In this document: positions 20,917 through 62,399 of the stretch, one piece after another
How the letters are laid out: each line of letters opens with the position of its first letter
Position numbering within the stretch: position 1 is the first letter of the stretch
DNA from: Raillietiella orientalis
Lineage: Eukaryota
Assembly: GCA_036172245.1 (NCBI GenBank)
Contig: JAYWIR010000023.1
Span: 806,001-870,000 of the forward strand
Length of the DNA stretch: 64,000 bases
Direction: 5' to 3'
Notes under the pieces: generated by a model
What the model saw: only the letters and a program-made list of their open reading frames with translations
The model's database searches: none
What the model was told of the DNA's origin: nothing
Program-made: the position numbers and the translations under genes

Positions 20917-20918
20917 TT
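20853..20918. repeat. (TTTA)n microsatellite, about 16 units
   Basis: Perfect ttta tandem array. Confidence 0.98.
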
Positions 20919-25620: not shown

Positions 25621-25758
25621 TCCACACATGAAGATTCTAGAAGCACGCATGAAAACAAAAAGGTCACAGACATTCTTAACGAAGAAGGGATCAATGGAGC
25701 ACATATCTCTTTACGGAGGTTTCCAGAGCGGGAATCTCAGCACGCTAGCAAATGCCCA
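25621..25758 (+). repeat. 138-bp exact direct duplication, copy 2
   Basis: Identical to 21110-21247. Confidence 0.97.
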
Positions 25759-39499: not shown

Positions 39500-40400
39500 G
39501 CGAAGATGGCGGTCACGTGCCGGATCGGAGGACGCATACCGAAGTAGGGCCCGCGGGTGCGTGGGGAGGTCCCGCGGGCAATCGCCGAAGACAATGGCTT
39601 CCATTCCAAAGTGAGCGCGCCCCAAGGAAAAAGGAGGGAATCGGACGCTGTCGCTCCCCTATTTTCGCCTTTCTCCAAATAAGGATGCGTCCCGCGTGCC
39701 TGTCCTCGAAATGCGATTCTGTGTGCAGATTCCAATACATCATTGGCTTGTATCCACGATGCCAATCAAGAGAGGAGAGGTTCCGACGTGTATCAGCATC
39801 CGGCGCGTCAACCGCGATCTGCCTCTTGAGTTGCCCCGTTCCCGGATTCGCGGCCGGCGATGCTGGAAGGAGCAGCGCGAATCAGCATCCTTGCGCGCGA
39901 TCCGCATTCGGCCCGGAGCCGCCGGTTTTCGTCTAGGGAACTCGAGAGATCCGCTTCGATGCGAACCACGCAGGAACCAGCTCTACCCCGGGGGTCTACC
40001 CCCGAGGTGCGGCCTGACCCCACAGGGAGAGGAGGAGCAGACCGGCAGCCCAGGAACCGACTCGCCCCTCCCGCGAGCCTGTCGCGCCGCGATGCGAGAG
40101 CCCCATGAGTGTGCGGACTCCGGAAAGGTTTCTCCCTTCCCTTCCATCCATACCCTCGCCTTCCGAGACGCGCCTCGGCCACTCCCCTTCCACCGCAAGG
40201 TCCACTCTCCGCCAAACCGCCGCCGCGCCCTCTCCAAGATGGAACCAAAGTACTCACAGTACGTTTCCTTGCTGAGCTTCGACGCTCTCTGCTCTTCCAG
40301 CTTCGAGTTCTTCTTACCCATTACACATAGCACAGCAGACACGCCAGCGACCGGTTGCCGTAGCAATGGCGAGCGTACTCCACATGGAAGAGTTGCCGCA
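39500..40400 (-). mobile_element. possible gag/aspartic-protease remnant in a GC-rich block
   Basis: Minus strand MLIHVGTSPLLIGIVDTS (about 39745-39800) with frameshifted ANDVL resembles a D-T-G-A protease motif; KLSKETYCEYFGSILERA is weakly gag-like. Speculative. Confidence 0.2.
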
Positions 40401-41589
40401 CAACAGGGATACTGGCGGGAGCACGGGCACTTCCACGCATGCGTTTGTTTGCACCTCCCCCCTTCCCCCCCTGCTTGGAAAGAAACGCCCTGTCGCTCGA
40501 GCTGAGGATAGAGGGTCACCCTACTGTTCAGAGATTCCCCCCCAAGGGGGCACAAGTGAGAGAACCCGTGGCGGATTCGAAACGAGGTCGCTGCATTCGG
40601 AGCTCGTTTTCGCACAGGTCACCCGGGCTTCTCGGGGTTTCCCGCTGTCGGGGGACGGGAAGCAAAAGAAGCTCCCACGCTAATAGGGGGCACCGGTTAA
40701 GGACGGACCCCTGTCCTCCCTTGTGGGGAGCCCTCGTCGATTCGAGGGTTCGAAGCGTCCCCAGGCGGAAGGAGACCACCACAGGCCGAAGGCAGCAAGG
40801 GGGAGCTCGGAGAGAGACGCCTTCGCCGCCCTTCCGCGAGAAGGCGGCGCCACCACCGACCCAGGCATGACCGGTCCGTAGCGGAACGCCGGTCCTCCGA
40901 GCAGACGCTGCGCCTCCCCAAAGGGGGGAGCATCCGTCCCCTCGGCAGCCGGGCGTACCCGGGAAGGCGTGCCCCCTCGCTTTGTAGCTCTGCTGCGCCC
41001 GGCCGACGCGTCTGGAGACCTGCGTCCCCGTCTTCAGGGTGGTTTCCAGGAGCGAAATGCCCCTCACCTCCCGCCCTTTGGACGAGCGACCCTCCCCCCC
41101 TTCCGAGCCAGATCGATGACTCTGATGCCCCTGGTCGACTTGCAGTAGAGAGGGAAAGTCGAAGGGAGGCACCCCAACTGCTCCTGTTGCTTTCGTGGAC
41201 GAGGCGGTCACTGCGGCGGCGGCGTTTCTTTCGATCCTCGTGCTGCCGCGGCCGTTCCGATGACGTCAGCAGAGGATTAGCGGATCGGCACGAGTCTGTC
41301 CTCTCAAGGGCGGGCTGGGAGATCTCTCCAGAGCCCCGCCACGCATCTTCGGAGGCTTCTTCGATCCGGAGATGCCTTTCGCCTCCTTCCAGCGACCCTA
41401 CGAAAGGCCCCCCTCCCTCCCACCCACCAACCCGCCTTCGCGCTTCAGCATCATCCCGATGCTTGCTCCTGAGGATTCCTCCTTTGATCCTGCTCCTTCC
41501 GGGGTGCCTCGACTCGCGACTCCTTCCTCTTGAAGCCGTGCCTTTCGGTGTTTTTCCGACCCTCTGGCGAGAGAGATCAGTTCCTGGCA

Positions 41590-43200
41590 CGGTCCCTCCC
41601 GGATCAGCTCCACTTTCCGTGAGGAACGTCCGTTCCCACCACCAAAATGGCTACCACTCGTCATGGGGGACCGATTCGATCCTTCGTCTGAGGGGGGAGA
41701 TGGGGTGAGGGTGGATGGGACGCTCTCCCTTCCGTCCCGCTTTCACACCCAACCCCCTTCTTGCCATCATCCTCTCCGATTCGCAGCTGCCACCCCTCAG
41801 AAAATCCGTCTCCGTGGGAAACGGATCTTGACCCGCCGGCCGCTCATCCTGAGCCGAGATTCAGCAACCCGCCCCCTCAGGGTCGAAGAGAACGCCAGCG
41901 TCCTCTATTTATCTTCTCCTCCCCCCTTTTCGCCTTGGGTTCCTCGCCTTCCCGACCCGATCGCTTTCCAGGTAAGCCACCTCTTCCGCCGCCGACCGAG
42001 AAGCCGCCGAGTGACCTCCGCAAAATGGCTCAGTGTCCGCCCCGCATCTGCTGATGGCCCGCTGACCCCGTTTCGAGGTTGTTCTCAGCGTTCATCCCTG
42101 AATCTTTCCTCCTCATTTCTCTGGGCCCCGAAGCGGAGTCCCGAAAGATCGGCAGCGTGAAGAGTCACTTGCCATCGGCCTGGGCGTGTGGAACGGGAAG
42201 CAGGAAGAGCGGGAGCGTGATCCCTCTGACCCATGGCCTCCCGTGGCGGCGCGTCCTTAGCGATGGGATGGCCGAGGTGATGGATTGGAATGACCGCACC
42301 CCACGGTGCGGTTATTCCACGGATCGAAATCAAGATGGGCATGGAGGTAGGCAGGGGAGTCCCGGGATCCCTTCGCTGGGTGGACGCCGTCCGCCCTCTT
42401 CAGCGTTCAAGGTTGGCAACGGGAGGCATGGCTCCTCACGGACTCCGGCAGGGATCCTGTTCTCGTCTCGCAGGGAGACCCGGAGAAGGTAGGGGAAGAC
42501 ATGGGAGAAGTGGGCAGTTCACTAAGAGCGCACTCACCTGGCGTCCCGGTCCCTTCGCCTCGCCCCCGAGGTACACCCACAGGTTGGGGGTGACCCCTCG
42601 CGGCTACGGGGGTGGCATCGCGGCTGCGCAGGGCGGTGCGGCTGCTCCCACCAAGGGCACCAATTCAGACGGAGAAGGCGCAGGAGGGTGACCACCGGAA
42701 GCGACCTCCGCCTTTTCGGCCATGCCAAGGTCACCGCGCGCTTGCCTCGTCGTCGGGCATCTCCTGGCTGCTCCTCTCCAGAGAATTACAGCAGTTGTGG
42801 CTGGACACATCGTGACCCGAACTTCATCAGGAACGGACCTAAGCAAAAGCAGAGGAAGGACGGGAGGAACTCGCCTCCCTGGTCTCGAGCTCTCCTGATC
42901 GCTCACGCTTTCGCTTCGCATCTCCGTCTGTACCGTTTCCTAGAGATCCAAGAACGCGGTAGCGGCGACCACGACCTGCTGCCCAGAACCTACAGCTTTG
43001 GGCTGTCTTCGCCGCTTGTACGTGGCGGAGGAGCGCCGGTGAGGCAGCGCCCATGGCGTGACTGCCCCCTAAGGATCATCATCGGAGAGGCCCTCTCTCC
43101 CCGCTGCAGCTTCTGGAACATTCCGAAACCACGGGAGGGATGACTCCTCCTTCCATCCCAGAATTGGGAGCATTTCTTGGAAACCCCTCCCCCCTACTCC
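41590..43200 (+). mobile_element. heavily degraded L1/Tx1-like LINE ORF2 (APE endonuclease, RT, post-RT)
   Basis: Motifs in correct order across frameshifts: LVMGDRF (~41657), RVD..SCHHPL (~41760, SDH-like), PTEKPPSDLRKM/SADGPLTPF, HGLPWRRVLSDGMAEVMDW, GVPGSLRWV, GLRQG (42440-42454), SRALLIAHAFASH and PLVRGGG. YADD not seen. Confidence 0.6.
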
Positions 43201-44169
43201 TACTCCTCCGAGGCGTGACCTTTTCCTCTCTTGTACCAACTAAATGATCCAGAGATCGGGAGCGTGCCGTTCGGTTGCAGCGCCATCTGCTGCGCGTTCC
43301 GGAGACACCACTCACTACCAACGCGCTCCAATCAGAGGAGGTCACAGCCGTCCCAGATTCATAGAGCGAGATCACCGGCCTACAAGATGGTGGTAGGTAA
43401 AGGAAAGGGGGGGTGAGAGTAGGGGCATAAAAAGGAGAAACAAAAACGAAAAAGCGGATCAAGAGATGACTCTTGACCTCCGACAACTTCAGCCCCAGCG
43501 TGGTAATCAGGTTCGCTTCCAAGGACACGGGGACGCTTACTACCGCTACCCAACCCCCTCTCTTCGAGGAAGCCACCCCCTACATTCGCGCTCCTCTGTC
43601 GGAAACGTCAGCCGTCCCGCGTCGCCGCCGACCTCCGAGCCTGGTTGATGCACGCTGCAGCGACGGGAATTGACTGCTTGCGGGATGGCGAAAGGCCGTC
43701 ATTCGAATGTGCAGGCATGTCGCCCCGCTTGTACTCGGGAAGGAGGGAGGTGTTCGAACGACGGGGCAGCACGACGAGGACGGGTGGGTGGCAGTGTGGA
43801 CCGCCTTCGGGGGTCAGCTCGGAGATTCCCAGCCGATTTGCAATCCCGTGATCCGGTGAAAAGATGAACTGCGTCCGATTACCGGTTCGATTCCTCGCCA
43901 CTTACTCGCTCTTCGATCCTGTAGTATCCGTAGCTGCCGCTGAGAACCAAACTGCACGGGAAGCTAGGCGGCCCTTTCTCGAAGAAGAGGAACTTGGGAT
44001 GACCGTGGACCTTCTGCCCGGGAATCCCCACCGTATGCTTCCCTCGATCTCTGAGTCCTCTAGCAGCTCCCTGATTCGCTTCCGGATCGAAGGATTGGGA
44101 TCAAAAAGATCTCGGGTTGAGTGAGAAGGGTCCTTCGTGCCTTTGATTCCCGTCTCTGGACCTGCGAAA

Positions 44170-44735
44170 CTCTTTTTTGGAAGGGGGGAGGGGTTCGCTA
44201 GGTGCACAAGCAATGATTGTCCCCTTGGGGGGAAGGGGCTCACAGAGCTCTTCGACGCTGCCACGCCACCTGAGGGTGCGTGTAATAAGCTCTTCAAGTT
44301 AGAGGGGCAACCCTAGAGGGTCCACCCTATGAATCCTAGAAGGGCTCCGGAGGAAGCAGTCCGTTCCTCGCACGCTTGGGAGGGGAACCCTCACACTGGT
44401 TGTCGCTGGAGGGAACCCTGAAGGGAATTTCTCCCTCATTCTCTCCGGAAGGGTCCCCTGTTGAAGGGGGGCACTTTTCATGTATTCTCTGGAAAGAATC
44501 TGCAAGGGAATCGCTCCTCGTTTCCTCATCCTCCTCCTCTGAAGACAACCCCGAAGGAACGTTTCCAAGTTTCTCTGAAGGGTCGCTCCCTGAAGGGAGC
44601 AGCTCGTTTCTTCACACACTGAAGAAGCAATCTCCCGAGGGGAAATCAACCATCATCATGGCACAATCCCCTTTTCACAACCTGAAGGACTCCTTGATTT
44701 CTGGAAGGACCCCGGAGGGTCGACTTCTAATCCAT
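44170..44735. repeat. dispersed repeat family R1 (left flank of LINE copy A)
   Basis: ggttcgcta..ccacgccacctgagggtgcgtgt..ccctatgaatcc, subunit array, ending ggaaggaccccggagggtcgacttctaatcc; collinear with 59665-60285. Confidence 0.85.
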
Positions 44736-44738
44736 GCA

Positions 44739-45380
44739 TCCCGGCAACGCCCGCCGGCATCAGCGGACATCACGAGGATGTGTGGATCTAAAACTGCACA
44801 CGGTGCGGGGAGCGGGAATCCCTTCCGCACCTCTTAGTGGACTGTGTTGCCCTCCGGACCCTTTGAAAATGCTTTGCCCTTGGAACTCCCGGCAGCAACG
44901 CCAGAGATGTTTTAAAGCGCCTCTTCCTGAGCGACACACTCATGCCTGGCGTATCCCCGGCAGCACTTTGCTACTCACGCGGTGGTATCGTGGTTGCATG
45001 GAGCAATGCCAGAGAATGCCAGAACGACAGAGATGCCATCTATTGCTGTCCTTTTCATGAGGACAGCGTCAAGATGGCCCCATCTGGGAATCATAAAACA
45101 GGAAACTTGCCGGCATCCTTACAAGGATGCAGAGGACGCCCTCCAGCACGCAGTGATCCCTTCCCAAACCTCCCCCTCCCCCTCTTTCTTTTTTTTTTTT
45201 GACTGTTTTGTTTTTGTTTTATTTTTTTCTTTCTGTTTGTCTCCCCTTCCCCTGTGCTGCCGAGGCAAAGCCTGCTGGTCTGCGTGGCAGATCCCGGCAG
45301 GTTCCTTTTCGTATTCATAAGTAACGTGGCAGGATCAAACGATCTGCCACAGACGTGTGTGTTTATTTTTTATAAATAAA
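44739..45380 (+). mobile_element. 5'-truncated LINE 3' end, copy A (zinc-finger region + 3'UTR)
   Basis: Homologous to 61562-62202; 44848-45385 equals 61669-62207 except for one C-run indel. T-rich 3'UTR, hairpin at 45326-45350, ends ...ttttttataaataaa. Confidence 0.85.
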
Positions 45381-45569
45381 CGCCCTGGAGTGACCAGGTG
45401 TGAACCAGTGCCGCCCCCGAAGCCTACAGGCTAACCAGCGTCATCCTGCAGGGGGCATTCGAAACCGACGACGCACCGTCCATTCTCGGCGTCGTCCCTT
45501 CCCCGAGTGGGATCCGAACCCGCAACTCTTGGCACCAGGCGTGGAGGTCGCAGCAGCCAATGCGGGCCT
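45381..45569 (-). mobile_element. tRNA-derived SINE-like head and body
   Basis: Minus strand ...tggctgctgcg..ccaagagttgcgGGTTCGGATCCcac (B-box at 45510-45520), then gcaggatgac..ctgtaggcttcgggggcggcactggttcacacc shared with 62203-62388. Confidence 0.7.
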
Positions 45570-47599
45570 ACTTTCAGGCCGAGAGCTCATTACCTTTAAC
45601 ACAGCAAAGGTTGCTCAAGAGCACCTTCCTAATGGTCTTCCCGGAGGAAATCTTCAGCTGCCACTGGAACGAGGAGAGTCACGGAAACTCTTCACATATG
45701 CTGCACTTTCGTTCTGCGCCGACTCACTCAAAGCGCAGTCCACGCGGTGCGCATCCACCGCACCCATTCCGCCGCCGTAAGCATTTCGTCTTCAAAGTGC
45801 TGAAGACAACTGAAGAAGAGAGAGCAGCTTCTCACGTCCAGAAAAATTTTTGGAAAACCATTCTTCGATGCCACGCTACCCATGAAGAGGACGTGTGGTT
45901 GGCTTGAATGCGCTTTATGGGCACGGCGGAAACGAAAAGCCCTTTCTGGCTACCCAGGTGCGAGCAGCGTCGTGGTAGCTCTTTCTTTCAAGCTGCGAAC
46001 CCTATTCCTCGGAAAGGTGCTCTTTGTTCTCCAAGACCAACCATACCTCCATCTGGACTTTTCTTCGCTTATCTTCTTGCTCTCTAGATTGCTTGAAGAC
46101 TGAAATAAATCCTATTCCTCTTAAAAATTTGTATTCTCTTCTCTTCGATCGGTACTGCTTTTCGTTCTTTGGTTTTTTCTTGTTTATCGATTCTCCAGCA
46201 GTCGTTAAATCTTTAAGACCGGGTTTACTCTCCAGCAGTCCCTGAAGGTGATGGTCTTCCATCTCCCTTCCGCGTTTGCAACTTTGAGATGACTATCTCA
46301 AAGATCATCAGAAAGAATTCTCCTCTTCCCTATTTGGAATGCAAGATGGGCTTCCGCTTCCGTGACATCAAAGGCGCAGATCGGCTGTCCGCTCTTGTAC
46401 TTCTCCCTTCGATGCACACAGCCACGAGACGGAGGAAACTTTTTGTGGCTCACGGGACGCAATCGGCTCGACAGTCTCAAAGGAGCAGTAACTGTCTTCT
46501 CCAAACTCCCTGCCCCAAACCCGAGTTCCCGTCTCTTGATTAAACAGCTCAGATCCAACCAGCCACCAGTGATCCCTCTCTCGCTCAAATCTCGTTTCGA
46601 TCCGGTCCACAGCCTACACGCGGTACCGCTCTACTGCATCTCAGCCCGTGTTTTCTGATCCAAAGTTCCGGAGAAGAGATAGACCGTCTCTTCCTCTTGC
46701 GGAAATAGGTTGAAATTGCCACCGCACGGCACAGCACAAACCCATGGTCCGTTTTCCTTGATCGGGATGAAGTGTCGCGCAGGTCACGGTAATGCTCTTG
46801 CAAGCACAAGTGCCGAACGTCGAGCAGCATCTGCACAGCACCAAGCGCATTCAAGAGTGTGAAGCATGTGCAAACAGGAAACAGGGTAAGCAGGAGCTGC
46901 CAAAGATAAGAAACTGGGGAAGCGACAAAAAAAGGGAGAAGAGACAAACTCAGAACTTCAGATCGAGTCCCCAACTGCCTGCCTTAATAGACAAAGGCAG
47001 ACAGGTCCATACATGAGTTAGGTAAGCAGGTACGGGCCATTACTGAAGAAAGAACCTCGTGTGATCCTAAATGAAAGTCGAGATGCCATCTGTGACGAGG
47101 AACGAATGGGGGAAGGGGAGGTGGAGGTTGGTGTTAAACGAGTCTGAACTGTTGGCATGGTGCAGCATCGGAAGGATCATTTGGAGGGCCTCCAAAAAAA
47201 AAAAAAATAAACAGTTCCTACAAACAGTGCTTCCGAAGAATCTCTCAATCTGCTTGCAGCAAGCCGCCATCTTGCGTCCCCTCTGCGTAGCCCCCATGAA
47301 TGTCACGTGTTACTAGCACGATAGTACGGTTGCTCGCACACCATGCAGAACAGCAGGGGGGCTATTAGCTACATGGTGGCACTCCTATGCAGAGTTAGAG
47401 TGAGGAGACAGTATATTTTTTTTTTTTTTTGGAGCAAAAGGATGGATCAAAAATATGTCTGTTCCTCAAAGCATCTCTTTCTCTTTCACTCCCATCTAAC
47501 ACCATTGGTAAATTGCTGGGCATTTTATAGGTTTTCGCCATCTTTCTCTACAGGACTCGACGACAATCAGGTGTTTGTGGTCTCGTGGAAATCACCCTT

Positions 47600-49020
47600 G
47601 CATCCATCCATACTGCAGGACAAGACGAAATCAAGCATTGTGCTATTTGTTGAAGGTGGAGGATTCCGGTTGGCAGGATGTATCTTGGAGTATCCTGGTC
47701 CCCTCTTGTCTCTTCAGAACACTTCTCGAAGAGTAGAGTGCTGTATGCCCCTGCCCTTTCCAAGCTTCTCTCACCCTTAGGCATTCCAAAAGGTAAACTG
47801 GTCTCCTGCGACGGTGGACAGGCGTGGTACACCTTGAGTGCGTGCTTCCGACATCGCTGAGGTGCATCCTCCCAGTCTGCACCCCAGTCTGTCGCAGGCG
47901 TGTCCGTCCAACAACGCTGAGGCGCTGCCGACCTGTCCGCCCATTCTGCGGTACACCGTAAGTGCTTCCTGATTGCGGTCCACCAGCGAAGCGCTCGTGT
48001 ATGCTGAGAATAATCTCCACTTTGCATTTCTGCAGCCAATCCGAGCGCCAGGCTGCTTGTAGAGTTCGGGAGCAGTCACTCCGAGTCTGCCTTCTCTTGA
48101 GTGGCTGTCCCGAGTAGCAAACCATGCATTTCAATGCATTTCTTGCGAACCCATGCTTTCTTTTGCCTCCGATCTGGGAGCGTTCCAGAAGAGGAATTCG
48201 AAAACTGCTCATCAATCTTTCACAAGCCCACTTTGTGTAAAGGAGGAGGATAGGAGGACTCAGAGGTGACCGGAGAACAATTCCCAAACCAGTGGTTGGA
48301 TCAGCAGGTTCAGGAATCTCGAATACCAGTCCTTGTTCGCTGCAGAAGGGGAGCGTCCCTTCTGCTGCTAACAGGCTGCTTCGATAACGGACCGCAATCG
48401 GAAAGCACCCGCGGTGTACCGCTGGCGAGCTCTTCAACGCCTGCCCACCGTCGCCGGCGATCCATTTACCTTTCGGAATGCTTTTGGAATCCTCTGTTCA
48501 ACCTTCAACAAGCGTCCGAGCTTTCCAGCTCGAAAGGGTAAAGGGATATGGGAGGCAGATTCAGCATGCGAACATTCGCGTACGAAGCTGCTTTTCTATA
48601 AACAGCAGAAAGTTGGTGTGGAAAACTAAATTTCGCAAGTAAAAGCTCGACTGGCTCATCTTTCTAATGGTGGCATCCTCACTCATGGATGCTACGTGAA
48701 TGGTTCCTCTGGTTTGCATGGCCGAGACTTGTTGACCCAACTGATTTCGTTTTAATGTTTCCTTTATGTCTTTGTAGGTTTCCATGCCATCCGGCGCTGG
48801 AAGCTAACGCTGCACAAAGTGGCCAAGCTCCGAAACGTCTTGAGACCGCCTGGAACGTCTTGAGACCGGAAGGGAAAAAAACAGCCTTCGTCGCAGGGTT
48901 CCCATTCGCGAGACGAGATGCGAAGAGTATTGCTTTATTGGTTTCTGGTTCACCCTTGGGGTGCGACCTCGGCCTTTCCGTGTTTTCTACGCCGTACATC
49001 GCAAACCATGGAACATCCAC
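47600..49020 (-). pseudogene. degraded PPR remnant, interrupted by inverted repeat arms
   Basis: LLLYTKWAC..IGGKRKHGFARNALKC..QPLKRRQTRSDCS (48060-48250), AWKGQGHTALY..CQPESSTF, and GAWPLCAALASSAGWHG. Confidence 0.5.
47781..48481. repeat. inverted repeat pair about 700 bp apart (TIR/MITE-like)
   Basis: 47781-47825 gcattccaaaaggtaaactggtctcctgcgacggtggacaggcgt matches the reverse complement of 48437-48481 at 38/45. A second block, gcggtacaccg..gtgctt.c.gattgcggtcc, pairs ~47948-47992 with ~48378-48422. Confidence 0.75.
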
Positions 49021-51129
49021 AAAGACGCCCTACCTACTTGCCCTAGTGCTGCCTTCCCTTCTGTCTCAAGAAAAAAGAAGGGAACCAAGAAAGAAGGGGA
49101 AAGGAGTTTCTTTATCGACTCGGTGCGTTTTCTTCGAGTTCCGGATGTGCGGTTCGTGAAGAGGGAGGACTGAAGGAGTCCTTTTCCCGACGGAACGCTT
49201 GCGATTTTGTGACTATGTCGACGGGGCGAAACGCTCCCGATCGGACCGACAAAGCTCCCCAGGTGAAAACAGTCGGAAACGACGTTTGCTTCCTGCGTTG
49301 GGCAGAACCAGAACCACCACCGAAGTGAGCATTGCATCTGGCTTCGCCTCTTCCTTTTCGGTAAGGATCGCCTGCTGCTCTTAGAAGCGGTGCCAGTCGT
49401 ACTTCACGGATGGAGAAAACTCAAGGGAATTTGCGAGCTGATACTCTCCCGATCAGCTGGCACTCAGAAGCCGTGAAATGTCCGTTGACATGACTTGCCA
49501 ACACATTGGCGATAGGATTCGACCGTGGAAGAATCAGAAACTGCAAACGGCTGCAGGGAGTAAGCGAGCGAACGGGAACCAAACGGGGGAAAACGAACGA
49601 AGCCAGTCCTTCCCGAAACTGAGCTTGCGGTGCTTTCAATATTAACGCTCGCATCCTGCTCACGTGATTGACTCCTGATATCGAACTTGAGCTCGCCGAA
49701 TGCTCACGTCACGTCCGTCGGAGACCGTGCTCGCGGAGGAAGATCAGCCGACGGCAGAGATTACTCTGGCAATCCGAATGTGCCCGACTCGGGATGCTGT
49801 CGAGCGCTTTCCCCCCCTGGAGCGAGCCTTGCATGCGCTGCGCAGTCGGGAAGAGCAAACACTGTTCCCAAACACGTCCGAGCGCACCCTGCAGCTGGAG
49901 ATGAACTACGTGAGGCAGCGACGAGTGAAAGCAGCAGCGAACGTTTTCCTCTGCCCACAAGATTCCGGTTTCCTCTGCGCTTCCTTGGCTGCCGTGATTG
50001 ATCCTCGCAGCCGGAGCAATAACTCAACACGAATCCGCCGGAGAGCACAAATGGCTGAGCGGGAAGCGTCCATCCGAGACCATGTGTGATGGTTTCTTCT
50101 TGTTACTACACATCCATCACTCTCTGAGTCCCATCTGAGCGATGTTCGCTACGAGTAACGCCCACGATAAATCAGAAATCTCAGCTGAAGCCATGAGAAA
50201 ACGAAGTTATGAAATTTAATAAGAAAGCAGTCCGATTGCTAAATCCTCTTTTTGACTTGGAAACGGGATCAGAACAAATCTTGCATGCAAAGTAATCAAA
50301 TGGGGGTAGAAAATCCTCGATCACAATCATGAAAGGGAATGCAGATCCTCCGCTGGAATTCATCCGGGTAGGTGAACTGATGATCACATTCTGCGCTTCA
50401 TCAGGAAGTTCATTTTGGCCTGTGTCCATTTGCGTCCAGATCTTCCCGCTACTTTTTTCGATCCCGGCTACTTTCCAAGTAGCTCGACGAAGAGTTCCAA
50501 GTACCTGGCGCCGGAATGTGGCGCCATGTGCATTCAAAAAGAGTTTCTCAACACGTGCCGCCATCTTGTTAATTTATTTCTTCTATTTTTTTTTTGTTAC
50601 TTGAAAGCTACACTGAGGATTCGATGAGCACCCCTGCGAGTCTGTAAACAAAAAAAAAACACGAGTCAACAACACCTAGGTTTTTTGATTAGTACAGAGT
50701 TTCTTCTTTGAACACTGGAAACGCTGGTGCTTGTGATGACGAAACAGGAATGAAACTCACCGCGTAAAGGTACGGAAGCGTTTCTCAGTGGATGGAGAAA
50801 GGAAGGCCCCAGCTACGGTGCTGGCAGAAATGAAATGGCGCTCTTGAATCGATGCACGTTGCAGTAGAACTGAGGAAGCGTTCCTTTCTCACAGGATGGA
50901 GCGAGCTGCTGGAACAGAGCGATAAATCAAGTGAAAAGAGAAATGAACCCGAAAAAAAAGCTTCGGGAGCAACCGACAACTCATCAACCTGACATTCTGT
51001 GGAAAGATGAAATCGTCAGTGCACAACACTTTCTGAGATTCGCTTTCTACAGAAAATGCCATGAGCCTCGTTCAATGGTACAAAGAAGTCATCGTCATCG
51101 GGTAGCTCACTCGGACACAAGTAGCAATT

Positions 51130-52213
51130 CAATTAGACAAGATTCGGCGTGCAAGCTCCTGACGACGGATCCTCTTCCCTTTGTTTTTGAGGAAAAGAAG
51201 GAAAGAAAAAAAAAATTAGCTTGATCTTGGAATTCAAATTTTCTGGAAAGAGGCAATCCCAATGATTCAGATCAGCTGCATATTTCATTTCATTTTGCTT
51301 GCAAATTGAATTCTTCAGGCTGGCTTTCACGACCAACGCGCCTACTGGCTTGCACTGTTGTGGAGGATGCGCACGTCTGATCCCAATCTCTTTGAAGTTC
51401 CGGACATTCCGTGCGATACGTTTTCGCAGCACCGCTGCGATTTCCCTCAAGAAATCCTTCCTCCAGCAGAAAATGCATATCTCATCGGCCATAACCTTTT
51501 GAGGCCTTCCAACTGATTCCAAAGAGCGATCCCAAGATCACCACGTGTTCCGTCGCACCTCATGACCATCACTGGCGCAAACTGCATGCTGATGAGAAGA
51601 ACACACAGAAGGGAACAGGATAGGACCATCCGCCAAGGAGTTCTTAATAAAACCCTTGAGCGAAAATTGTTTTGCTGGGATGGAAGCGCAGAGCTGCTGA
51701 CGGTTTCAGACATTCAGAAAGGCATTTGAAAGGATTTACAGCTTTCTTTTCAAAATAAGAACACTTGGAACACTTTCCAACACTTGGAAAAATTCTATTC
51801 TTTAAGAATTCCAAAAAGAAATCGTTTTCCACTGCATCTACCAGCTCAGTACATTGAACTTTACCGACCTCCCTTTTTTTCTTTTTGTTTATGAACTTTA
51901 AGAAAATCTGGCTAATAAATTCCCATTCGAATAATCTTTTCTCCACTGATTTATTGTTTCTACTCCCATTTGATACTTCGTCCCAGATAATCATTGCAAA
52001 ACGATCAAACCTCTGAAGAAATCTGGGGAATCTGAATTCTGAAAAACAAACTCTCGAGTGATGGGCCGGAGCATTTCGTCTTTGCATCCGTAGCGAACAT
52101 GGGGTTTCAAGATCCGAAACATTTGGAATGAATTCAAGCTGTAATCGTTTCCGATCAGCAGAATCCTGAATTCCCACAACAGGAATAAGGCTGCAACGCA
52201 GATACCTGTTCAT
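51130..52213 (-). pseudogene. degraded PPR remnant
   Basis: IIWDEVSNGSRNNKSVEKRLF, ENDFFLEFLKNRIFPSVGKC and RNFKEIGIRR..VGALVVKASLKNSICKQNE. Confidence 0.4.
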
Positions 52214-53349
52214 TTCAAATCGATACTATTGAGCTACGAAATACCCGTCCTGATGCATGAGCTGCTTGTGCTCGGAACATTGGGCCATCATCATCTCCTT
52301 CCAAACTGTTCTGTGATGTGCCAGCTCTCTGATAATGCACTGGGTTACATGATGAAATATTTTCTTCGTATTAGCATCATACAGTAGGCGGCCTGAAACA
52401 CATCACAAAATCCAATCATAAATTCCGAGAGTTCGGGATGTACGATTTCGATAACGTATACAATAGCTGAGCGGCAGTTCTGTGCGCCACATCCTTGCGA
52501 CCTGGACCACGGCGGCACCCGACAGACGCAGGCAGCGAGCACGAAGATTTTCAATTGTACTCGCAACACAGGTACCGATGATGGGAGATTGATCGAAAGC
52601 CGTATGGCTTCCGAGAAAAAAGACAAAGTGGGACCGAGGATTTGGCCAACAAGAATTCTAAAAAAAAGGAAAAGAAATCCACAGACCCGGATGCAAAAAG
52701 CCTGCTGCAGTAGCTGTCTATCTCTACTCCAACCAACCTGTGGTCACGAAAATGCTTGTTAAGAACTTTATACCAGTTATCGATGACGATGATGATGTAA
52801 TGGCGCTTTTCCTACAAGAATAAAGAGCGTTCAAACGATTTCTACCTTTATTTCTCTTGCTTCCCATTCATAGGTTCAATCTCTTGTGTATCTTTATGGT
52901 TTCTTTCAAGAGGCAGATTCTTCGGCTCGTTCTCCCCCGACAAACATGAGCATCAGCTTTGTCTTCCTTTCAGTATCTCGTTGGATTGACGTATTTTTAA
53001 AATATGTGTGGAAGACTGCAAGCAAGATTTATTTTCTTGTATTCAAAGGAAACCTAGCTGGGGGCTTGAACTTGGGTCTGTTTGCTTGGGAAACGACCAA
53101 TGATTTTGATGGCATAAACAGCAAAACTGAGCAATCAAGAAATTTCCCTGTGTAAGGAAAGAAGGCGTGATTGAGGTTCGTAAAAGACCAAAGCGTGGGT
53201 ACGGATTACGACGAGATCTACAGCAGAATGGTCGCCTCGCATCCCAGGCACATCGGAAATCTGCACCTCGGCTGAAATGTTTTCGGGAAAAGCCTCCACT
53301 CTTCGGCGTTTTCTGCAAAAAGCAGATAATGCACTAAGAGCGAGACTTT

Positions 53350-55300
53350 GCTCATGGGCAGCTCAAACCCGAATTTCGTGAATTTTCATGATTCGCTTAA
53401 CATTCCTTATGCTTTCCCTCCTTCCCGTATTACAGGCATGAGGTTCGATGGATGCGGACGTGGGATAGTTAAAATCACGGTGGCAGTAAGGGAATGTCAA
53501 GAGGAAGGAGGAAGAACGCCTGCGGGGTTACCGAGAATAGGTACTGAAAGGTTGTAGAAGCCATCCTGAGCGCTTCTGTGAAAAATTTGTCTTCCGAAAG
53601 AAATCAGAGTGCCTACGGAGATAGCCGAAAGTTCCGATCTCGACACAGAAGTCATGTTCAGGTCTCTCCTCGGAACAGCCACCGCTTGGAAATCGGAAAC
53701 CTCGAGGGATTTTCGAGCGCATCATTTTGTCCTTCCTCAGCCTCTAAATTTCGTACATCTGATTTTGAGGAAAGAACGGATCGCCTTCGAAATTTCTTTT
53801 GATGCTTGGGGTGCAGAGAAACTCCCGCGTAATTTGTGCAGATGCGAGACCTTGATCGATCCTATTTACTTCACTTTACCTCATTCCATTACAATTTTTC
53901 CATCGCTTCCTCCGTTAGCTCCTGGACGGAGGGTTCTTTTATCAATATGGTAATCTGGTGATCTGAATTTACTGACTTTGGTTACTCTCAAGAAGTCACC
54001 TAATCCGAAATTCTTGCCTCGTTCAGATTCGGTCTCTACGTATAGAAGTGATGATGATCATCTTCTGATGATTTCATTATTTAGTAGAGCGCCTGCAATA
54101 TTTTCAGCAAACATCTTACGCCCGATTTATGATTCCCCGCCTAGTCCGGCCAACCGGGACTTTCGTCGGTCCAGCTCCTGCTTCCTTCACTTTCAGCACG
54201 AGATTTTAGTTTCAGGGCACGAAATGGGCAGGCAGCCCACAAGATGGGATCGGACAGTAAACACTGGTAGCGTGTGGACTGGTAGCCATGTCTCCTTCGT
54301 TCGACTCTGGAAGAGGTGGTTGTCTTAGGCACGGTCCCTTCTTGAACGTCTCAGAAAGATTGCCCATTCAATCCGCGTGCCGTCATGATCTTCTGTGGGA
54401 ATGGTCGGTTTCATTGCGCAGGTCTCACCTCGTTATGCACTTCGTGCATTTTCTCAAAGAAAAAGTCGAATGCAGAGGGTGCAGAGTGTGATGTCTGGTC
54501 TCGACTGCTTCATCTTAAATGGAAATTTTTTGTAAGCAGTGTCCTCGCAAAAAGCGAGAGTAGCGTGGAGCAAGGAGCAGGAGTAGTGACTGCTCGCTGC
54601 GCTGAACCATTCTTTGCCAATGCTTTCAGTCAACCTGCACGTTTGCACACCCCCAAGAGTTTCTGATTTCCTCTTCTTGACAGTCTGTCTATTTGACAGT
54701 CGAAATTTCAGAGGTCCAAGCCGAAAGCCAAAAAAGTAAGTTTCAGGTGCCCTCTCATCCAGAGTCAGGGAAGACAAATCCATGTTCATTAGGTATTCTC
54801 TGCTTGTACAAGTTGAGCTTTCGTTTTGAAGGCTGTTGATGATCGCTCATCCTCTTCCTCCCTTTTATTCCAGAGCTGACCATCTAGCTTTCAGGATGCT
54901 TGCAAGGAAGATATTACAGTCGCCTGAATGTCATCTGAAGTTGTTGTTCACTGACAACTACAGTGGAATGAACCGTACAGGAACAAACAAAATCGGAACA
55001 CTGAAAATCTCTTTATGACGTCATTGGCCCAGCAGACAGCTGCAGCAGACATTCGTAGCTGTTTAGTCTACGGAAATCGTCGTCCAAGAAGATGCCGGGA
55101 AAGAAATTCCACTTCCCACGTACTAGTGAGTCTGGTCGGCCTCACAGCATGTTTACTTGGATCTGGAAAGAAAGATCCGAAACGATCTTCCAGTCACAGC
55201 TGACGATGGCAGCTTTCAGTGGGGCGTCAACGAGTCCTAGAACATTTTCAAGGACTCCAACAACTGACAATGCCTACAGCCTGTGATACTTCACGTTAAT
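53350..55300 (+). pseudogene. degraded PPR remnant
   Basis: NPNFVNF, FVSSVLAKSESSVEQGAGV and QQTFVAV*STEIVVQEDAGKEI resemble TF.SVL.AC.....LEQGK.IH. Confidence 0.4.
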
Positions 55301-55999
55301 CTCGAGCACAAATTCAGGACGCGAAATCTTTCTTCCTTGTCACGGCAAGGCATCTCCAGCTGAAAGATGGGACCAATCCGAGCTCCTGAGATACTCATTC
55401 TGGGAAGAGGGAATGAGATACTTGAATAGATCCAGCAGTGGGCTGGTGGTCGTCAAAAAAATGGGCATTACTTTGCAAAACTCGCGGAGTCCACTTCCCA
55501 AGAAGGACTCGATTCATTTTGCGAAAAATGCATCGACACGAACACACAAGGAAGTTGTCTGCGACCGAATTCTCATTAAAAAGCGTCTGCATGCAATGCG
55601 GGGACAAAGGCCATGCGATCGCAAGAACACCCAAGTGAAACGCGGGCCTCCTCTGCGAAAGGTAAACGAAGTCTGTCCTCACCACAATGGACAGACATCA
55701 GAAAGCACAGACAGACATTCGCATCTTCATCGTAACCGAATCACCCAGTATCACCCGCTCAATCACCCTTTGCTCTTGATCATCTCTCGTGAAACCATCA
55801 GAAAGAGCACATCTGAAGTGCTCATACCATGAAAATTTTCTTTCTTCGCGGGTTGCTGCTGCTGTTGCTGCCGGTTGAATTTCGTGCAAAAACAAGAACT
55901 GCCTTCTCTTAGAGACTCGGAAACAAGGTGAAGCTCTGGAGATAAAAATCCCTGGAAATTCACTCATACAGACTAAGAAACAAGTTCAAAAGACGTGAT

Positions 56000-58080
56000 C
56001 GTGGTTCCGAGGTGGTAGTTCTCTGTGTCGGAAACTAAAGCTAAACGATGGGCTTCGCTGATTTCACGGAAGAAGCTGTATGCGTATCGTACCATTTATC
56101 ATGCATCTGTGCGTCATGGTTTTAATTTACAGTCATTTCTCATCCAAGGAAACTTCCGAATGGATCTTTTCAGAAAGCTGAGGAAACACCACCGGCACCC
56201 CAAATGGCGATGTTTGTTGAACAAATGCTGAAAACTTCCGAGATAACCTTCCCCTAACATGGATGATAAATAACTAACGAAGATTCGTAGGCAGCTGGTA
56301 TCTGGAATGAAACCGCCTAATGTGTCTGAAAAGTATCTAAATATACTTATAATTAAGGAATGTAGGTATATCAGGAACCAGTCAAGGGATCCAAATACAC
56401 TTTTCCATAATATGTGTTCTAAATGCCCTTGAAAACTGAGAAAGCAGACTGGGAAACTATTCAAGCACATGCAGTGAACTGCAGTCAATCATGGAATGCA
56501 TTTGCTCGGTGAGCTACAAAGAAAAGAAAAATTTCCAAGTCAAAGAGGAATCCAGTGGTTTCATTTTTTATTCAAAAATCTTCATGAATTTCAATGGGCG
56601 TCTGCATGCCACATGAATCAGAGATCAGCAAGCAATAGCAAGAAATCAAGTGAAACCAAGCAGAGATTTCATTCCTCCTCCAAAAAGTCGAAATGGAAAC
56701 GGAAACGAACAACGAAGTTGAAATTGTGTTCTGACGACTGACACAGGCAGCAGATGAAGGATACCTTCCGTGTAAAACCGTGTAAAAGATCTGAAAATAT
56801 CTGTAGCAATTTTTTTTCCCCAAATTAAAAGTGGATGTAGCTTGTGATCAGCACATGTTTTCGATTCCCTTGACTTCTCCTGCCAATGGTTCACATCTGC
56901 AACTCATTCGTCAGCAGGGGAAGCTAGTTACACACTCTCTCTCCCTCGTCCCCACAGACACTGATTTTGGGGGATTAACCCCCGTTTCTCCGCATCGCAT
57001 CTTCTTCAGCTGGTCAGCACACGGTGATCATTCATGGAATTGGCGCAGCGACTCACAGACTGAGGCTTAGCAGCTGATCAGTTGAATCCTGGGTGTTTCA
57101 GGGAGCACGGACTGGCATTACTCAAGAGTCCCATTCTGCATTTGTCTTGATCAAACAAGATGAACTCCAAATGAACTGCAGGGAGTGACGGTTCCTGTTT
57201 CAGAAAGATGACCACGAGCGGCTTCGTCGATGCAATCCATGGATCCTAATTTCTCCATTTATCTAAAACGATCTCGAGGCAGCAATATATTTGCATATGC
57301 TCGAAACTCGAGAATCGATGGGAGCTTCTGAATTCTTGCACATCTGCTTCCCTCTCGAGTCAGAGGACAGCTAAGAACTTACTCAGGGTACTCGACGGAA
57401 AAAGAGATTAGTGATTTGTACGGATACAAGAGCGATGAGAATCTCATATTGCTTGCATTCTTTTGCTCTTTCAGGTGAATTCTCCATACAAGAATGGATG
57501 TATAGATTCAAGCAATCAAGTACAATCAGGTACTGACTCTCCGTAATGATTCCAGAGAACGGAATTCAGCGTCCACGTTTATCTGAAAAGCAGTGTGAGA
57601 AAAGAAAGCAGCAAGTTTTCACTCTTTTCAGAAATGATTGGCCCTTCTAGGATTGGATTGAGTCACTGTTTGTGTGAAAGGATTCACCCTTTCGAACTGA
57701 AACGGGCAGAAATTTACGAAGAGCTGTCGAACGGGTTCTAGTCTGGAGCAGCCCTTGCCACACAGAGAACTATAAAAGACTGCTTATAATAAAAGACCTC
57801 CTGAAGGTGGCGAAAACAAGACCCTACCTTGTGGAAGCATTTGCTCCGGGGTGTGATCACTGGGTCGTTTCAGTGTGTAAAAGCGATGAGGAATCTTTGC
57901 TCCAAAGTATTCCTCAACATGAGATTTCCTTGAGAAGAACTGCCCCAAAGCCACAGACTTTTGCGATTTATTTGGCTTTATCTTCGTTCGCCTTTGAATT
58001 ACATTCTTTTAACAAGTTGTATAAGCATACTGCAGCCTCAGCCAAAGTGTGGACTATTTGCTGTTCTTATCTGATGAGAT
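56000..58080 (+). pseudogene. degraded PPR remnant ending in an E-like region
   Basis: DLFRKLRKHHRHPK..LLNKC, NTLFHNMCSKCP*KLRKQTGKLFKHM, IFAYARNSRI and APGCDHWVVSVCKSDEESLLQSIP. Confidence 0.45.
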
Positions 58081-59664
58081 AGACGGAATGCCTTTTTTTT
58101 TGTCAGCAAATTCCGTGATTATAAGAGCACGAGTCGTGAAACACGTAGGCGGAAGCCCTACCACTGTTCCTCGCATTATCCCCTACGTAACCGACTGATG
58201 GGAAAATGCGTGGAGCCAAGCATCTCCGATTAATGCAACCCGCACTGCAATCGAATGCTAAGAATTGATCATTTGTAAGCATCGTCACCCACTCTTCGGT
58301 TCCTTTCGAGCCTTTTGGACTTTGAGTAGGAAACTTCTCAAGAGTTTCAACAAGAGTTCTATTGATAGTGTACAGGGAAATTTGACGGTATAACTGAATC
58401 CAGAATCGATCGTGTTTTTAAAATGCGCCATCCAGAGCTCCTCAGAATGTTCGCAACATCTGTGTTTTCTCAAGTGTGCTATCTCTTTCCAAATTTGTTT
58501 GAAGAATTTAGTTTTCGACTGTCTTCTATCGCTGGATCTTCTCATTTCCATGATTCTCAATGGACGATCTTGTATCTTGGTTCAAGTTCTCCCTTTTTCT
58601 CAACTCTCCTGCCTTCGGATGATGAGTATTCCCTTTTCCTTCGGTTACCACCAACACCTATATCTTAACTTCTATCATCACAAATGACTGCAAATGAACT
58701 TCAAATTCAATGTAGGTTGCATGACTGGGGGAGCAGTTCCGTTTCTCAAGTAGAGCTCTTCGTTCATCCTCCTTGGCAACTCTTGAACAGCTGAAGCTCT
58801 CCGAATCATCGTGACCTCAAAGTTGTTATTAACAGTTGTTGTTGTTTTTTTAAATATCAGGTTTCTCCAACGAGTCTACCTACCATTCATAGATTTTTCC
58901 TAGTCCTGCATTCCTTTTCTCGGTACCGCACGTCCCTTTCCCCTTTTCAGTCAGTTTGTTTGCACAATTCAAAACAGAGAGCACAGAAATCTCTTCCATG
59001 TTTGGTTTGATGCCTGTCGAATGTGGATTCTTCTCTGGAAGCGCCTTCGTTCACCACTCGTCTTGCGACCGCGAAATCGACACCGTGAGCAGCGCTGCCA
59101 ATATGTGGTGCCGTTCCTCTGAGTTCAGGAGTGACCTTAAAGGAGAGTTCGCGAAGAGTTGTTGCAGAGGCTGGAAAATTCTTGAAAGAATATCCATCAT
59201 CTGGTAATGCTTCCTGCTTTCGGTCAAACTGACTTGCGAGAACACATCGTTTTAAATACTGTGAGGAGAGATGGAAACTGCAGAGCCAAATCTTCCCATC
59301 CCCTTGACGGGGAAACGAAGTTTGTGGAGATGTCGCATCTGAGAGAGGGAAAGCTTTCAGATCTCGATTCCGAAAGCAGATGGGTTTGTGGGATGGGTTT
59401 GATTGCAGACATAGGCAGAGATCGAGACAAAGACCTCAGAGAGGACGTGATCCGAAAGGAGACCATCCCACCTGAAGTCCGCCGAACAAGGACGGAACAA
59501 GCGTAAGGAGGCCAACCGGTGTGACCTAACGTTTCGCTGCATCCGATGGAGAGAGCTCGAAGGAAGAGTCCGAAGTATCCAGCAGGTTTGCGGGAAATTT
59601 TCTTGAAGGCATTTCGGGCACGAGCTGCAAGTGCTTCGAGAGTGCACAAAAGGAACACGAAATC

Positions 59665-60285
59665 GAAATCCCTTTGGGACTTTCCTGTTTTCGCTGCTTT
59701 CAGCTTTTTTTCTCTTCGGGTTTTCTTTTTTTTTGGTTCGCGAAGTACTGAGGAACCTCTGCCTCTTCAGGGAGGACTCACGAAGCTCTTTCGCACTTGT
59801 CCACGTCGCCCGAGAATGCGTGCAACAAGGTCGTGGGGTTACCCCGGAAGGACCAGCCTATGAATCCAGAAACTCCAGAGGGAACCCTTGCCCTGGTTCT
59901 CTCCGGAGGGGTCCCACAGAGGGAGAGCACTCCTCGTTTCTTCTCTGAAGGGATACCGGAAAGGATCCGCTCATGAATTTCTTCTCCGGAGGAACCCGCA
60001 AGGGAACCACTCCTCGTCTCCTCCTCCTCTGAAGACAATCCCGAAGGGACGCTTCCCCATGTCTCTGGAGGGTGCTCCTCGAAGTGAGCAGCTCCCTTCT
60101 TGAAACCCTGGAGAGGTGACCCTCCGAGGGGGGTATCAACCGGATCCGTGGTACGCGATGAAGGGTGCCTCCCCGAGGGGGCAGACGGCTCCATTTTCAC
60201 ACCTGGAGTCGGGGGAACCTCGAAGGAAACTGGGGCTCCATGATGTCCTGGGAAGACCCCGGAAGATCCATTTCCGATCCTGACC
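59665..60285. repeat. dispersed repeat family R1 (left flank of LINE copy B)
   Basis: gaaatccc..ttttcgctgctttc..T-tract..ggttcgcgaagtactgaggaacc, cctatgaatcc, subunit array, ending ggaagaccccggaagatccatttccgatcc. Confidence 0.85.
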
Positions 60286-60289
60286 GGTC

Positions 60290-62202
60290 AACAAGGGCAT
60301 ACGGGGGTTTCTGGCTTTCACCCTTATGTCCCAACACGCCTGCTATCTTAGCATACGTGGACGATCTTCTGCTGTTGCTCCCCATGTTCACCCTGGAATG
60401 CGCACTCGACGGCTTCTTCGAGCTGCTCAGTCTTGGGACGGACCTGGTGGTGAACAAAGCGAAGTCGTCTGTGGTTCCCGTTGGTGCGGCGTAGGCAGGG
60501 CGGCAGGGCTGGATCCACCTGGGGATCCCTATTATTCAGTGCTTAAAGTACCTGGGCGTTCCGTTGGGGGAATTCTGCTCCGCAGAAGCACACAGGTTCG
60601 ACCGTCTTCAAAAAGCACTGCAGGCGCTCAGCCCGTTCCAAAGAGGCAGGTTTTATCTGCCGGAACAGGCCGCGATGTGGAACACGTTTGTGGCCCCCCT
60701 GCTCAGCCCCTTGCTTTTTGCTTGCCCCCGCCATGCAGCATTAGAAAGCAGACAAAGGACCTTCTCTGGATCGCCCTCTGGGGCAAAGGGATACCCCGAG
60801 TCCTCCTAAAGGACTTGTGTGCTCTGAGCTGGGACGGTGGCCTAGGCCTCCTGAGTCCTTCCCAGCAGTCTCACGCTGAAGCGAATCGAGCTGCAGCTCC
60901 AGTTCCGAACACTGGCCCTCATGGAAAAATTATGGAGCACCACCTATTGCCAACCTGCAAGTCTCCTTGTCCAGCAAGCCACCGGGAGCGTGTAACTCGC
61001 GTCCTTCCTTGCGGGTCGTCCCCGCAGTCTCAAGCACTGCGGACTGCACTTCGGCAGGTAGCCACGCTGGCCAGGAAGGACGGATGGATCTCGTGCCGCC
61101 TAGAGAACGGCAATGGTTTCAGGGAACCATTCGCATGTGGGGGAGGATCCAGGAGCTAAGCGCGGAGCAGGTGCGACGTTTCCTGTACGCGCATAGCAAC
61201 AACGCACAAGGAGCACAACGCACAACTGCACGCTCAAGGAGACTCTGGAAGATCCCGCGGAGAGTGCATGGAACCTCCCTCGTCGCAACACTGCCCTTCC
61301 TTAGGGAGCACATAGGCAGCAGCCTTAAGTCCTGATGGGAGGTTCTGTGGAAATCTCCTGAAGGAGAAAAGGACTGGGAGAGTGATGACGGGCCAGCTCA
61401 CTGACGCTGCAACCCCGAGTGCTCGACCTCGTTGACTTTAGCTCTGGGTCGTGCTACTGGGTCTTCCGGAGGAAGACCTGCAGTGGCCACCAATCCTCAT
61501 GAACACCCGCACCCTCCCCTTAAAGTGGCAGGAGTCGGCATTGATGCTGCTGCACTGGGCCTCCCGTGCAACGCCCGCCGGCGTCAGCGGACTTCACGAG
61601 GATGTGTGGATCCAAACTGCACACGGTGCGGGGAGCGGGAATCCCTTCTGCACCTTAGTGGACTGTGCTGCCCTCCGGACCCTTTGAAAATGCTTTGCCC
61701 TTGGAACTCCCGGCAGCAACGCCAGAGATGTTTTAAAGCGCCTCTTCCTGAGCGACACACTCATGCCTGGCGTATCCCCGGCAGCACTTTGCTACTCACG
61801 CGGTGGTATCGTGGTTGCATGGAGCAATGCCAGAGAATGCCAGAACGACAGAGATGCCATCTATTGCTGTCCTTTTCATGAGGACAGCGTCAAGATGGCC
61901 CCATCTGGGAATCATAAAACAGGAAACTTGCCGGCATCCTTACAAGGATGCAGAGGACGCCCTCCAGCACGCAGTGATCCCTTCCCAAACCTCCCCCCTC
62001 CCCCTCTTTCTTTTTTTTTTTTGACTGTTTTGTTTTTGTTTTATTTTTTTCTTTCTGTTTGTCTCCCCTTCCCCTGTGCTGCCGAGGCAAAGCCTGCTGG
62101 TCTGCGTGGCAGATCCCGGCAGGTTCCTTTTCGTATTCATAAGTAACGTGGCAGGATCAAACGATCTGCCACAGACGTGTGTGTTTATTTTTTATAAATA
62201 AA
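60290..62202 (+). mobile_element. 5'-truncated, frameshifted L1/Tx1-like LINE (RT C-terminus, thumb, zf-RVT-like CxxC-H-C, 3'UTR), copy B
   Basis: ILAYVDDLLLL (YVDD 60354-60365), LVVNKAKS, KYLGVPL (60546-60566), LCALSWDGGLGL (GGLGL 60836-60850) and CTRCGERESLLHLSGLC (from 61618). Confidence 0.9.
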
Positions 62203-62388
62203 CGCCCGGAATGACCGGGTGTGAACCAGTGCCGCCCCCGAAGCCTACAGTCTAACTGAAGTCATCCTGCCGGAGGTTCTTGAAACCCACTACGCATCCC
62301 CCATTGTCGCTGTGGATCCTCCACGCGGGGATTCGAACCCGCAACGCTTGGTGCCTCCATGCTCGGAGGCCTCAGCCACACGGTCGCT
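62203..62388 (-). mobile_element. tRNA-derived SINE-like head and body
   Basis: Minus strand agcgaccgtgTGGCTGAGGcc...ccaagcgttgcgGGTTCGAATCCccgcgtggag (B-box at 62329-62339); close to the 35697 copy. Confidence 0.72.
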
Positions 62389-62399
62389 CAATTCGTGCT

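Follow-up and report, generated by a model that had tools for sequence, protein, structure and literature searches.

A candidate target-specific L1-like LINE, apparently inserted twice at one position of a retroposon with a tRNA-like head in Raillietiella orientalis

Many long interspersed elements (LINEs) of the Tx1 clade have target preferences, and other transposons are among the targets (PMC4494074). That survey places Tx1L in the piggyBac-type transposon Tx1D, the Tx1-Mar families in Mariner-N4_AMi, Tx1-9_AMi in Harbinger transposons (three Harbinger families being struck about 300 bp from their 5' ends), and Tx1-8_Crp and Tx1-4_AMi in specific long terminal repeat (LTR) retrotransposons (PMC4494074). 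According to a second source, most target-specific LINEs fall in the early-branched, Tx1 and R1 groups (PMC4640811). The present analysis concerns a stretch of 64,000 nucleotides of the Raillietiella orientalis genome (assembly GCA_036172245.1, contig JAYWIR010000023.1, positions 806,001 to 870,000 of the forward strand), referred to below as the window, in which two copies of an L1-like LINE lie at one position of a repeat with a tRNA-like head; a first reading of the letters (here the original prediction) had proposed that such a LINE might target a short interspersed element (SINE).

The two loci resemble the Tx1-clade cases in that an L1-related LINE recurs at one position of a second interspersed repeat, 5'-truncated and with a fixed 3' junction. 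They differ from these cases in that the target is a retroposon with a tRNA-like head, unlike the DNA and LTR transposons, RNA genes and microsatellites known as targets; in addition, only two events are seen here, and the nearest relatives besides one metagenomic protein (P0001, described below) are only 23-32% identical. The LINEs of ribosomal DNA and of small nuclear RNA genes (R1, R2, Keno and Utopia; PMC4640811) are likewise tied to a fixed nucleotide in a multicopy target and have a 3' junction without long poly(A), but their targets are conserved RNA genes, whereas the repeat struck here is dispersed and diverged. Among Tx1-clade LINEs, the targeting of other transposons has precedent, and what would be new, if the reading given here is true, is the target. 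In a limited literature search no title or abstract was found that describes a LINE specific for a SINE-type retroposon, which is not proof of absence.

The two loci lie 16.8 kb apart in the same orientation and have the same anatomy (Table 1): a repeat designated R1, the LINE, and a minus-strand element with a tRNA-like head follow one another on the plus strand. The 5' starts of both LINE copies stand directly after the same end of R1, at the motif quoted in the original prediction, and their 3' ends both adjoin the same position of the minus-strand element. One 3' end (...ttttttataaataaa) is common to the two copies, and the 5' truncation points differ, positions 44744-45385 of LINE A pairing with 61568-62207 of LINE B, whose 5' start is placed at ~60286-60294. 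The sequence common to R1 A and R1 B reaches 60281 in copy B, and bases 60282-60293 at the R1 B end are either target or LINE 5' junction. To the right of the LINE, the sequence common to both loci is the head side listed in Table 1. The features on which the original prediction was built were all recovered where it had placed them, by repeat scan, self-BLAST and pairwise alignment.

Table 1. Coordinates of the LINE copies, R1 copies and head copies in the window
Feature	Position	Strand	Description and evidence
LINE copy A	44744-45385	+	5'-truncated, ~0.64 kb; ORF2 end and 3' untranslated region (UTR); pairwise alignment with copy B
LINE copy B	~60286-62207	+	5'-truncated inside the reverse transcriptase (RT) domain, ~1.92 kb; tblastn and alignment
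R1 copy A	44170-44743	-	profile positions 63-640, E 1.1e-163; ~62 left-end positions missing
R1 copy B	59662-60285	-	profile positions 1-639, E 7.3e-173; left end complete
R1 copy C	29404-29889	-	E 4.5e-136; same left end, other right end; no LINE or head after it
R1 copy D	24306-24511	-	E 3.5e-54; same left end, cut after ~206 nt; right flank A-rich
Head side A	45386-45574	-	tRNA-like head and ~124 nt body reaching the LINE 3' end; alignment, profile
Head side B	62208-62394	-	tRNA-like head and ~121 nt body adjoining the LINE 3' end; alignment, profile
Third head copy	35696-35827	+	E 6.2e-13; opposite strand to heads A and B

A profile search of the whole 64-kb window, run with all filters off, found two LINE copies, four R1 copies and three head copies; two more matches to the LINE profile (E 0.48 and 5.5), six to the R1 profile (E at least 0.093) and two to the head profile (E at least 2.7) were taken as noise. 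Both LINE copies of the window (2/2) lie within its complete R1-plus-head units (2/2), identically oriented and at one aligned nucleotide, in agreement with the double insertion at one site, antisense to the head, that had been predicted. By our own arithmetic, the chance of two random insertions falling on two given sites and strands in 64 kb is of the order of 1e-10, and a chance coincidence of the two LINE positions is unlikely.

The LINE copies are far more alike than the sequences that enclose them. In the 3' part 538 of 539 columns are identical (A 44848-45385 against B 61669-62207), and even the less similar 5' part (44744-44847 of LINE A, with 96/104 columns or 92% identical to copy B) exceeds both the left flanks, where R1 A and R1 B are 68.6% identical with many indels, and the head side, where 129 of 178 columns (72.5%) are identical. 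The first 53 columns of the head side are the better kept (46 identical), and the LINE 3' part differs from these as well (Fisher test, p 2e-7). The contrast between near-identical LINE copies and flanks of ~65-75% identity, which had been noted in the original prediction, is thus borne out by measurement, and LINE identity so far above flank identity indicates young inserts in old hosts.

Outside the unit that runs from R1 to the head, the two loci are unrelated: 300-nt local alignments on each side scored within 200 shuffles, and self-BLAST of the window found nothing common to the flanks of loci A and B beyond R1 and head. A larger duplication is thereby excluded, and a segmental duplication, which the original prediction had named as a possible refutation, is unlikely. 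With their unlike 5' truncations, their near-identity against flanks of 69-73% and their unrelated outer flanks, the two copies seem to be independent insertions. The arrangement is accordingly read here as two independent, target-specific LINE insertions into an old composite retroposon of ~0.8 kb, a reading to which we give somewhat better than even odds (a probability of about 0.55). It would suggest that the LINE has a sequence-directed preference for this retroposon, possibly throughout the genome; with two events only, it is a lead and not a result.

The middle piece is, by its sequence, a 5'-truncated LINE of the L1 superfamily, so called because its RVT_1-bearing relative fits human L1 ORF2p best. 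This relative, P0001, was the sole one found for the window RT in a full HMMER scan of 1.84 billion representative proteins (E 4.3e-42, 57% identity), and is a protein of 619 aa encoded on one 2870-bp JGI metagenome contig. It contains RVT_1 (E 4.7e-24), and among solved structures it fits human L1 ORF2p chains best (E 7e-40 to 5e-39), while R2 proteins match at 7e-17 or weaker; in this far better fit to human L1 ORF2p (E 7e-40 against 7e-17) the lineage differs from R2. The other homologues of P0001, at 23-32% identity, mostly combine Exo_endo_phos (PF03372), RVT_1 and zf-RVT, and in a protein atlas P0001 falls in generic RT clusters whose taxa are uninformative. In the window, tblastn with P0001 (E 4e-53) places RT motifs at 60315-61186 in copy B, along a track that crosses one stop and at least two frame changes. 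YVDD is in frame at ~60354-60365, and the frame 60288-60809 reads ...AILAYVDDLLLL... and then, past one in-frame TAG (60492-60494), ...YLGVPLG.... Together, YVDD and a 57% identical relative that has RVT_1 and is closest to human L1 ORF2p among solved proteins confirm that the original prediction was right to call the middle piece a genuine LINE.

The endonuclease region is missing from LINE A and LINE B, and P0001 is also without its N-terminal region. A Cys-x2-Cys-x7-His-x4-Cys motif is readable at 44795-44845 in LINE A, with an in-frame TAA just ahead of it, and is broken in LINE B by gaps of 1 nt and 2 nt; Pfam zf-RVT had no match in the window LINE at E up to 10. No Pfam family was matched by the RT fragments of the window, and a window RT fragment gave only chance-level matches in the PDB; a word-based search for longer proteins with such a fragment came back empty, and so missed P0001. 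The 3' UTR has two strong hairpins (~62148-62172 and ~62181-62205 in copy B; fold z -4.4) and terminates ...TTTATTTTTTATAAATAAA, without a poly(A) run. Further copies of the LINE and of its target were sought in metagenome contigs, where an exact 21-mer of the LINE 3' end had 0 matches and a protein-pattern scan (alignment A2) gave 123 stretches of which 0 were confirmed, and in viral contigs, where 0 were confirmed with alignment A2 and 0 were found with a 25-mer of the SINE body. One locus on a genome contig was not used as a further copy, being only 28% identical and on a contig labelled as a bacterial metagenome-assembled genome.

At the 3' junction, the order on the plus strand is T-rich, A-rich (ATAAATAAA) and SINE body, with the tail of the LINE directly on the body and no SINE tail between them, which indicates that the SINE was interrupted inside its body. 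A tail-to-tail insertion into a SINE A-tail was considered and rejected, as the T-rich stretch precedes the A-rich one on the plus strand and the LINE tail meets the SINE body directly. From the junction to the B-box-like motif of the head there are 124 nt in locus A and 121 nt in locus B, while the aligned nucleotide is the same; a spacing that differs by 3 nt at an unchanged nucleotide favours sequence recognition over distance from an RNA polymerase III (Pol III) complex. Conservation is higher beside the site (46/53 columns) than in the next stretch (45/69; p 0.007). These better-kept columns fit a recognised target, i.e. one in which only copies with an intact target were struck, a weak indication from two copies only.

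The 5' junction reads ...catcccggc-aacgccc-gccggc... in locus A and ...gaccggtc-aac-aagggc... in locus B. The heptamer aacgccc occurs at both ends of LINE A (44746-44752 and 45379-45385), just where the original prediction had located it, and also lies inside LINE B (61570-61576), as is expected if the 5' end of copy A was joined by microhomology, the explanation that the original prediction had offered. Between the R1 motif and the LINE stand atgcatcccggc in A and tgaccggtc in B, which by eye seem to be diverged forms of one sequence. An empty site would then be predicted to read R1...ggc/ggtc followed by aacgccc(t)gga..., and any target-site duplication (TSD) or microhomology would be at most 7 bp in A and 3 bp in B. 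A search for TSDs around the LINEs and the composites returned only aacgccc in A, and cccggaa and tgaccgg in B; the latter two lie at off-junction positions and were rejected as chance. No direct repeat of at least 6 nt was found at the outer borders of composites A and B.

It is plausible that the head, the body and the antisense R1 form one Pol III-headed unit of ~0.8 kb. R1 is the sole sequence common to loci A and B beyond the LINE, and nothing is common past R1, which favours such a composite. R1 copies B, C and D have one left-end nucleotide in common and differ in their right ends, a pattern that resembles the 5'-truncated retrocopies left by a minus-strand element with its 3' end at the left end of R1; this left end, common to three of the four copies, is without a terminal A-run. 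The evidence on R1 orientation is mixed. The proposal in the original prediction that R1 and the head are one Pol III-headed element is therefore plausible only: nothing but R1 is common to both loci across the LINE, the window contains no empty site, and the orientation evidence points both ways. R1 copy C was considered as an empty site or as the true right end of R1, an idea rejected because alignments of this copy with the R1 end and with the SINE side stayed within the range of shuffles. R1 itself (44170-44743, 59662-60281, 29404-29889) is made of degenerate internal repeats with a motif like ttctctccggaggg.acccgcaagggaa.c.ctcctc; its open frames, which occur on either strand, match no family. 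R1 copy D (24306-24511) is bracketed by a direct repeat of ~141 bp (21109-21249 and 25620-25760), 4.5 kb apart, with sharp borders and identity in all aligned columns; the pair may represent the ends of a small LTR-type element, its terminal repeats, or else a short repeat in two copies.

The heads bear B-box-like motifs on the plus strand, ggatccgaacc in A (45510-45520) and ggattcgaacc in B (62329-62339). On the minus strand, head B has an A-box-like tggctgagg, and by eye GGTTCGAATCC (B) or GGTTCGGATCC (A) follows ~39 nt past a TGGCTG(A/C)GG motif; a hairpin like an anticodon arm and another like a T arm can also be made out by eye in head B. This reading is by comparison with the general consensus of the Pol III A and B boxes. 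ARAGORN at default settings found 0 tRNA genes in the window, Rfam at the gathering threshold had 0 matches in the window, and the Rfam tRNA model matched 0 of the 3 heads at E up to 10. With relaxed ARAGORN settings, 0/3 heads were called at -ps and at ps90, 1/3 at ps80 (head B, as tRNA-Leu-like) and 3/3 at ps70. The tRNA-headed element of the original prediction was thus not upheld by default ARAGORN or Rfam, calls being obtained at relaxed thresholds only, and "tRNA-like head" is used here as a reading of motifs and nothing more. The third head copy has ~110 nt in common with heads A and B, followed by its own short body and an A-rich tail, with no LINE downstream; the head module hence occurs in a short SINE too, and this copy looks like a short SINE variant.

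Four alternative explanations were considered. One ancestral R1-LINE-head unit might have been copied, by duplication or as a mobile unit, its LINE homogenised by gene conversion or by polishing, and copy A shortened by the loss of 1.28 kb. The distance of 16.8 kb and the shared orientation of the loci agree with this, as does the tract of 539 columns at 99.8% identity between stretches of 87-92% identity, such as may arise by conversion or polishing. However, identity in the part of the LINE that escaped conversion, at its 5' side (96/104 columns), is far above that of R1 or the head side, the deletion in A must begin exactly at the R1/LINE border, and the outer flanks have nothing in common. 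Duplication of a finished unit, which would need uniform divergence together with that deletion, is unlikely, and we consider the copied unit as a whole improbable. The same 539-column identity, together with indels between the copies at homopolymer runs, is what polished long-read assemblies typically show and could point to an artefact in which LINE sequence was misplaced or collapsed into two repeat-rich loci. Yet both junctions are clean and stand at homologous positions of diverged flanks, and the LINE copies are of unlike length with private differences, all of which makes such an error very hard to credit.

Chimeric retrocopies formed by template switching include U6-L1 in mammals and MINE in Magnaporthe, in which a 5' partner with a constant end is fused to 3' parts of a LINE that vary in length. 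The two loci show this same combination, with a constant R1 junction end and a variable LINE truncation point, and R1 may be a separate plus-strand RNA or element that was template-switched onto 5'-truncated LINE cDNA, the chimeras then striking one site of a short antisense SINE; SINE targeting would still hold. R1 A is shortened at the left, as a 5'-truncated plus-strand copy would be, and an A-rich stretch follows R1 D. This explanation nevertheless predicts a SINE remainder to the left of R1 in both A and B, where the left flanks are unrelated. Unlike in U6-L1 and MINE, no TSD brackets the R1-plus-LINE chimera and the same antisense SINE lies 3' of both; moreover, R1 C and D are intact at the left and cut at the right, which is the wrong end for plus-strand retrocopies. 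Template switching is on balance rather unlikely. TRE3 retrotransposons of Dictyostelium integrate downstream of tRNA genes, and a Pol III complex on the tRNA-like head could similarly guide the LINE to a point ~120 nt beyond the B box on the downstream side, its 3' end turned towards the head. The geometry fits: LINE and head point towards each other, and the LINE 3' end stands downstream of a Pol III-type head, facing it, at about that distance from the B-box-like motif; but the position is fixed in sequence and not merely in distance, the same aligned nucleotide being used despite the 3-nt spacing difference, no LINE lies downstream of the third head copy (35696-35827), and the head is a degenerate SINE head that is not recognisable as a tRNA gene. 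Guidance by position appears quite unlikely.

Several observations weigh against target-specific insertion into an old composite, beginning with the fact that only two insertion events are observed. No clear TSD was found for the LINE or for the composite by the searches around them, as the original prediction had also reported, and the profile search of the window found no uninterrupted R1-plus-head unit that could represent an empty site. R1 copy A is short by ~62 positions at what would be the protected 3' end of a minus-strand retrocopy, and the A-rich plus-strand stretch after R1 copy D would suit an R1 read on the plus strand. Neither default ARAGORN nor Rfam supports a tRNA nature of the head. 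The differences between the LINE copies are uneven (8/104 columns in the 5' part against 1/539 in the 3' part, p 3e-6), which makes the age of insertion less certain than 99.8% implies, and the true age may be greater; gene conversion, assembly polishing, or an origin from different source copies that have a conserved 3' UTR may account for part of the near-identity. The stop and the frameshifts in LINE B are also odd for a very recent copy.

If the two LINE copies are nevertheless target-specific insertions, the history of the loci may be reconstructed as follows. An old minus-strand retroposon family of ~0.8 kb would have consisted of a tRNA-like head with a Pol III-type box, a body of ~120 nt, and R1 as its 3' part, and an L1-superfamily LINE would have entered two diverged members of this family, independently and recently. 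Both insertions would have occurred by target-primed reverse transcription at the same nucleotide, antisense to the head, with the LINE endonuclease nicking the minus strand after ...GGGCGTT and the cDNA being primed at the nick from the A-rich tail of the LINE (...ATAAATAAA). Reverse transcription would have halted early, leaving copies of 0.64 kb (A) and 1.9 kb (B), and the 5' end would have been joined via microhomology, aacgccc in A and aac in B. A further and doubtful extension is that the LINE and P0001 belong to an undescribed, deep-branching L1-like lineage whose endonuclease recognises the GC-rich ...GGGCGTT/G.CCGG (nicked strand) in a Pol III-type retroposon, i.e. a dedicated parasite of a SINE-like element, with a Pol III complex maybe helping.

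Pfam found 0 families in 13 long open reading frames (ORFs) of the window, and 0 families in 147 of its 182 ORFs of at least 95 aa, the remaining ones overlapping the two loci or having already been scanned. A dinoflagellate spliced-leader motif, with 3 mismatches permitted, had 0 matches in the window. The stretch from 38000 to 44000 is rich in GC (55-63%, compared with ~44% in other parts) and contains long, overlapping open frames in both directions, none with a Pfam family. Positions 2-161 and 42881-43039 form an inverted repeat (76-88% matched); a tandem array of a 35-bp unit in ~5-6 copies, 81-96% alike, occupies 5060-5269, and an (ATTT)n microsatellite of ~100 bp lies at 20832-20935.

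Target-specific LINEs show how retrotransposons can find safe havens, and programmable, site-directed insertion has natural models in the endonucleases and RNA 3' ends of such elements. The lineage of the RT described here is almost unsampled in public data, with one relative of 57% identity in 1.84 billion representative proteins and all other homologues of that relative at 32% or less. If the reading of the two loci of R. orientalis as target-specific insertions is true, SINE-like retroposons would join the list of LINE targets, and the usual dependence of SINEs on LINEs would be reversed.

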